Shown: piece by piece, positions 3,603-3,679 of the stretch
Numbering within the stretch: the first letter of the stretch is position 1
How the letters are laid out: every line of letters starts with the position of its first letter
DNA from: Escherichia coli
GTDB taxonomy: Bacteria > Pseudomonadota > Gammaproteobacteria > Enterobacterales > Enterobacteriaceae
Strand: one strand, 5' to 3'
NCBI RefSeq assembly: GCF_003334765.1
Contig: NZ_QOWT01000003.1
DNA: 64,000 bases
Notes under the pieces: generated by a model
Seen by the model: the letters and a program-made list of their open reading frames with translations, nothing else
What the model was told of the DNA's origin: nothing
Databases searched by the model: none
Translations under genes and position numbers: made by a program

Positions 3603-3679
3603 TGGTTGCGGGGGCCGGATTTGAACCGACGACCTTCGGGTTATGAGCCCGACGAGCTACCAGGCTGCTCCACCCCGCG
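3603..3679 (-). tRNA. metZ: Initiator tRNA-fMet (CAU anticodon), single copy
   Basis: The reverse complement reads CGCGGGGTGGAGCAGCCTGGTAGCTCGTCGGGCTCATAACCCGAAGGTCGTCGGTTCAAATCCGGCCCCCGCAACCA, 77 nt with an encoded CCA end. Position anchored to the ORF-track frame starting at 3459. Confidence 0.95.

Follow-up and report, generated by a model that had tools for sequence, protein, structure and literature searches.

Does the single initiator tRNA gene written between amiC and mltA in this Escherichia coli contig reflect a chromosome that has lost two of three tandem copies, or an assembly in which tandem copies were merged into one? The question arises from the comparison with K-12 MG1655 (NC_000913.3), where the amiC-mltA locus carries three 77-nt tRNA-fMet1 genes, metZ (b2814), metW (b2815) and metV (b2816), which are separated by two 33-nt spacers and repeat with a 110-bp period. 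A preliminary description of the DNA had given three identical tandem copies for MG1655, and this is correct. The window analysed here, meaning the whole 64-kb stretch of DNA, contains exactly one tRNA gene according to ARAGORN, a tRNA-Met with the anticodon CAU. The same interval is recovered with the Rfam tRNA model RF00005 at 61.4 bits (E=1.5e-12), which compares with a gathering score of 29. The gene comprises 77 nt (CGCGGGGTGGAGCAGCCTGGTAGCTCGTCGGGCTCATAACCCGAAGGTCGTCGGTTCAAATCCGGCCCCCGCAACCA) and is identical to each of the three MG1655 genes metZ, metW and metV. The CAU anticodon and the tRNA cloverleaf found by ARAGORN and Rfam are those of a bacterial initiator tRNA, and the hallmarks of initiators, as defined in PMC3017606 and PMC6393288, are present: C1 at the 5' end and A72 preceding the ACCA end (C1xA72), three G-C pairs in the anticodon stem (GGG/CCC; TCGGGCTCATAACCCGA) and G46 within the variable loop AAGGTCG. 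As tRNA-fMet1 of the metZWV type has G46 and the tRNA-fMet2 encoded by K-12 metY has A46 (bioRxiv 10.64898/2026.04.16.719103), the gene belongs to the tRNA-fMet1 isoform. The parts of the locus are compiled in Table 1.

Table 1. Features of the amiC-mltA locus, in window coordinates
Feature	Position	Strand	Basis
amiC CDS, N-acetylmuramoyl-L-alanine amidase C, left neighbour	2276..3529	+	Coordinate mapping; base-identical to MG1655 b2817
Intrinsic terminator of the initiator-tRNA operon	3567..3596	-	Terminator scan; hairpin GAACACCCTAACGGGTGTTT followed by a T-run
83-bp exact repeat shared by the contexts of metZ and metV	3599..3681		Overlap of two BLAST segments
Initiator tRNA gene, tRNA-fMet1 type, anticodon CAU, G46	3603..3679	-	ARAGORN; Rfam RF00005; identity to metZ/metW/metV
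Putative metZ promoter	3693..3720	-	Read from the sequence by eye; identical to MG1655
mltA CDS, membrane-bound lytic murein transglycosylase A, right neighbour	3888..4985	+	Coordinate mapping to MG1655 b2813

The surroundings of the gene are those of the metZWV operon. Between the amiC stop codon (TGA at 3527-3529) and the mltA start codon (ATG at 3888-3890), the terminator scan yields one site, with a stem at 3596-3577 on the minus strand and a T-run after it, and its sequence is identical to that found downstream of metV in MG1655; it corresponds to the K-12 terminator that follows metV. The preliminary description had read the locus as one tRNA-fMet gene between amiC and mltA with one terminator hairpin, and ARAGORN, Rfam and the terminator scan bear this out. 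On the other side of the gene, a putative metZ promoter combines a -35 element TTGCAT (3720-3715), a 16-nt spacer and a -10 element TATAGT (3698-3693) with a GC-rich discriminator and an upstream A-tract. A generic sigma-70 promoter scan does not flag this site, because its -35 element agrees at only 3/6 positions. Promoter-down mutations described for metZWV comprise a T-to-C change inside the -10 element and a G-to-A change immediately upstream (PMC3017606), and the proposed site, which fits this description, probably represents the metZ promoter. Position between amiC and mltA, the K-12 promoter and leader and the K-12 terminator are thus all found together, and the flanks are 100% identical to MG1655.

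Aligning the interval to MG1655, as had been proposed at the outset, gives three copies there and one here, together with a difference of 220 bp. Two BLAST segments cover the locus. Window positions 1-3681 are 100% identical to MG1655 from the amiC side through metV, and positions 3599-7903 are base-identical from metZ through the mltA side. The stretch shared by both segments extends the tRNA gene to an exact repeat of 2+77+4 = 83 bp in the metZ and metV contexts, and the 220-bp difference has its junction at some point within this block. Since the flanks outside the array are base-identical to MG1655, the window is shorter by exactly 220 bp, which corresponds to 2 x 110-bp units and leaves no scar; amiC and mltA lie 358 bp apart here and 578 bp apart in K-12. 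The 33-nt spacers of K-12 (TCACCGTACTGCTTTTACTTCATCAAATTTGAT and TCACCGTACTGCTTTACTTCATCAAATTTTAAT; TCACCGTACTGCTTT[T]ACTTCATCAAATTT...) have no occurrence anywhere in the window, and the array of three tandem tRNA-fMet genes is represented by a single gene. The locus therefore resembles K-12 metZWV in its amiC-mltA position, its 77-nt gene, its promoter and leader and its terminator, all of which are identical, and differs from it in having one gene instead of three, no spacers and 220 bp less sequence.

A shortening by an integer number of units with the junction inside an exact repeat is the expected product of a genuine contraction, but a collapse in assembly leaves just such a pattern too, and for this reason the 220-bp difference does not discriminate between the two; sequence alone does not separate a true 220-bp contraction from an assembly collapse. 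Under either explanation the single gene is a complete and functional tRNA-fMet1 gene, whose product would be transcribed from the metZ promoter, processed to a 77-nt tRNA, aminoacylated and formylated, and used in translation initiation.

The explanation favoured here, with a modest degree of confidence, is that the tandem array collapsed during genome assembly and that the organism probably still has three copies. The operon would then be an ordinary metZWV that is written with one unit instead of three, its promoter, tRNA and terminator remaining intact. The longest exact direct repeat in the MG1655 array measures 94 bp, and a de Bruijn graph of the MG1655 locus resolves into a simple path only at k>=96, so that a k-mer graph built with k below 96 does not fix the copy number. 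Common short-read assembly settings use values of k smaller than 96. With such a graph, an assembler could take the shortest path, from the leader through one tRNA to the terminator, and two units would then be dropped. The clean 220-bp difference between flanks that are identical to K-12 counts in favour of such a collapse, and an artefact of this kind at the metZWV array is plausible and probably common.

How often the one-copy state occurs was assessed by a census of complete RefSeq E. coli genomes (5,426 in total), restricted to the amiC-adjacent, island-free context. Each query spanned the junctions by joining n tRNA units to 60 nt of flank on the terminator side and 60 nt of leader on the other, with E-value cut-offs that only full-length ungapped matches pass. 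Three copies represent the majority state, being present in 3,236 of the 3,480 classified genomes. One copy was detected in 109 genomes (2.0% of the total and 3.1% of the classified genomes), two copies in 116 and four copies in 19. The one- and two-copy classes together comprise 225 genomes, which agrees with the 226 genomes that cover at least 80% of a 701-nt query. Contractions outnumber expansions about twelve-fold (225 vs 19), and this is the direction that is expected from collapse. About 1,950 genomes fall outside the census classes, in which island-bearing genomes were not counted. That these genomes might constitute extra copy-number classes was considered and rejected, as spot checks of Nissle and ST131 gave three copies. 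Both of these B2 strains (Nissle, CP035486; ST131, CP103742) contain three tRNA-fMet genes and, instead of the amiC flank, a T6SS island (tssB and further genes) after the last copy. This island, which the window lacks, is already known to be associated with metV.

The one-copy state is not a lineage trait; it is scattered over unrelated lineages. Its junction is found with several flank haplotypes, at identities from 100% down to 98%, and the backgrounds include O157:H7 Xuzhou21, O104:H4, laboratory strains of K-12 and numerous isolates from livestock and wastewater. Four public one-copy alleles, those of J53 (CP028702), MG1655p (CP144891), 2011C-3493 (NC_018658) and BR1220 (CP093068), are 100% identical to the window over the 197-nt junction of terminator, tRNA and leader; they stand in other strain backgrounds, and none of them matches the first 25 kb of the window perfectly. 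This lack of lineage specificity (109/5,426, on several haplotypes) counts for collapse. The gene and the locus are both known, and so is the one-copy state, which the window shares with more than 100 public genomes; its single copy is an ordinary repeat-number difference that is quite possibly an assembly error.

Many complete genomes are identical to the last 14 kb of the window. Among the exact matches to this stretch, NCTC9087, A14 and PEC1009 carry three copies each, which counts for collapse, and UMNF18 carries two; ECCTRSRTH03, which differs from the stretch only by an IS150 insertion, carries one. Over the first 25 kb, none of the 5,426 complete RefSeq genomes is identical to the window and the best shows ~3 mismatches, which is consistent with the origin of the window in a draft assembly.

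Assemblies of one strain or clone also disagree with each other. For MG1655, NC_000913 and CP032667 contain three copies and MG1655p contains one, and for C600 three copies are found in CP031214 and two in CP167195. Finished genomes of the 2011 O104:H4 outbreak clone give three different counts, with three copies in C227-11 (CP011331), two in HUSEC2011 (HF572917) and one in 2011C-3493 (NC_018658). That the same strain or clone gives 3, 2 or 1 copies counts for collapse, and such disagreement could in principle also represent true differences between sub-lines. In addition, one-copy records are clustered by submission batch, with 11 GF chicken-meat genomes, 8 WP-...-ESBL genomes and 6 genomes within CP0672xx-CP0673xx, and two pairs of one-copy K-12 strains (J53 and ME8067; MC1061 and OV2) each come from a single submitter; this clustering likewise counts for collapse. 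The preliminary description had offered repeat collapse as an alternative to a meaningful strain difference. The presence of a single copy and the effects of initiator dosage, on which the latter rests, both hold, but a meaningful difference between strains goes further than these results, and in view of a one-copy junction scattered over 109 of 5,426 genomes and of same-strain assemblies that disagree, collapse is at least as likely. As a separate observation, short-read resequencing has produced apparent point mutations in the spacers of several tandem tRNA arrays, including metW:metV (bioRxiv 10.1101/010595), which may be mis-mapping artefacts of near-identical spacers.

A genuine deletion, in which the clone lost two of three genes by replication slippage or by unequal homologous exchange between the 83-94-bp repeats, is a serious possibility that nevertheless falls short of being probable. 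Between 110-bp tandem repeats that share 83-94 bp without a mismatch, these routes should produce duplications and, at appreciable rates, deletions in vivo, and this counts against collapse. The locus does vary in nature: E. coli HS carries four copies in three separate assemblies (NC_009800, CP185286 and CM173443), an array that is a genuine expansion, and four copies are also present in XL10-Gold (CP081008) among the 19 four-copy genomes. The HS array shares the amiC-mltA locus and the 110-bp unit with the window and demonstrates that the repeat number really changes, which again speaks against collapse, but the HS expansion is reproduced across independent assemblies, unlike the contraction in the window. 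One- and two-copy states are also found in long-finished genomes, and the parent strain SW4848 has two copies where its derivative TSW4848-W1 has one, which speaks for a genuine deletion. Additionally, MG1655p has lost copies at metZWV only, its glyVXY and leuQPV arrays being intact with three copies each, which indicates that tRNA arrays did not collapse generally in that assembly and counts against collapse at metZWV; it is a weak control, given that the spacers of those arrays are dissimilar. Reduced dosage also appears tolerable, in that the tRNA-fMet level follows the gene number and a reduced dosage is viable and beneficial in some conditions (PMC3017606; PMC9981150, citing Samhita 2014; PMC8248024). 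Against a genuine deletion stand the three copies of NCTC9087, A14 and PEC1009, the three checked relatives with an exact match to the last 14 kb, and the excess of contractions over expansions, which fits collapse. Batch clustering and the 3/2/1 series within one outbreak clone further show that many single-copy calls in the databases are unreliable.

What a real contraction would mean can be derived from the work on initiator dosage. The abundance of tRNA-fMet tracks the gene copy number, and deletion of metZWV makes cells cold sensitive at 22 C and lets tRNAs other than the initiator take part in initiation (PMC3017606). In the delta-metZWV strain the initiator tRNA is down to about 25%, and growth is slowed by about 20% (PMC8248024). 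Fewer initiator copies are a handicap in rich medium and a benefit in poor medium, according to the summary of Samhita 2014 given in PMC9981150. The earlier statement that initiator tRNA dosage affects growth and the cold response therefore describes an established effect (PMC3017606; PMC9981150). The engineered delta-metZWV and promoter-down mutants (Kapoor, Das & Varshney 2011, PMC3017606; Samhita et al. 2014) share a reduced initiator dosage with the one-copy allele and supply the phenotypes to be expected, namely sensitivity to cold, a lower growth rate and initiation with tRNAs other than the initiator. They differ in that all three genes or the promoter are lost and ~25% of tRNA-fMet is left (PMC8248024), whereas a real one-copy allele would keep 2/4 genes, and its effects would be intermediate and milder than those of delta-metZWV. 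If the contraction were real, the strain would be left with two of four initiator genes, the one described here and metY, whose locus is outside the window. A tRNA-fMet pool of about half the size would be anticipated, with growth in rich medium slowed a little, a degree of cold sensitivity and relaxed initiation fidelity, together with a possible advantage under nutrient limitation. This would amount to a modest physiological strain difference in traits that are already understood in K-12, namely growth rate, cold tolerance and start-codon fidelity. In Salmonella, amplification of tandem initiator tRNA genes reportedly compensates for formylation defects, as is said to have been described by Nilsson et al. 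in PNAS in 2006. This case also involves a recombinational change of copy number at a tandem initiator-tRNA array with consequences for fitness, but it concerns an increase under strong selection in another species.

A more far-reaching version of the deletion reading takes the one-copy array as true of the organism and as the mark of a commensal lineage in nature that lives on half of the usual initiator-tRNA gene dosage. In wild E. coli, metZWV would then serve to adjust this dosage rapidly and reversibly, shrinking to 1-2 copies where growth is slow or nutrients are scarce and staying at or growing to 3-4 copies in rich niches, which is what the competition experiments of Samhita 2014 would predict; this version is considered unlikely. 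The idea that one copy is ancestral or fixed in the source clade, and the three-copy array of K-12 a later expansion, has nothing specific in its favour beyond being the simplest architecture and is highly improbable, given three copies in the majority of classified genomes, in B2 strains with a different downstream flank and in near-identical relatives, and given window flanks in which every base agrees with the outer flanks of the K-12 array, which fits a recent loss rather than an old independent state.

The practical significance of the locus concerns the quality of the data. The copy number of this 110-bp array is unreliable in public assemblies, in which the same strain or clone gives 3, 2 or 1. 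For this reason, tRNA gene counts derived from assemblies, as they are used for tRNA adaptation indices and for strain comparisons, are not trustworthy at metZWV without read-level validation.

The strain background of the window is that of a close K-12-like relative within phylogroup A. An identity with K-12 itself was considered and rejected, as the window differs from MG1655 by 79 SNPs and 1 indel and its last 246 nt are absent from K-12. Only nine of these SNPs are spread over the first ~58 kb, and cysJIH holds about 70. Across cysJ-cysI-cysH (window 59969-63697), the divergence reaches ~1.9% over 3.7 kb, compared with ~0.016% in the preceding 56 kb, and this stretch beside the CRISPR-cas locus looks like an imported recombinant tract. 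The adjoining end of the window (63752-64000), a hok/gef gene region, has no counterpart in K-12, where only a sokX remnant is present. In the identical relative A14, an intact Hok/Gef-family toxin gene occupies the positions corresponding to window 63752-63904 on the plus strand and is followed by IS421 and a truncated cas3.
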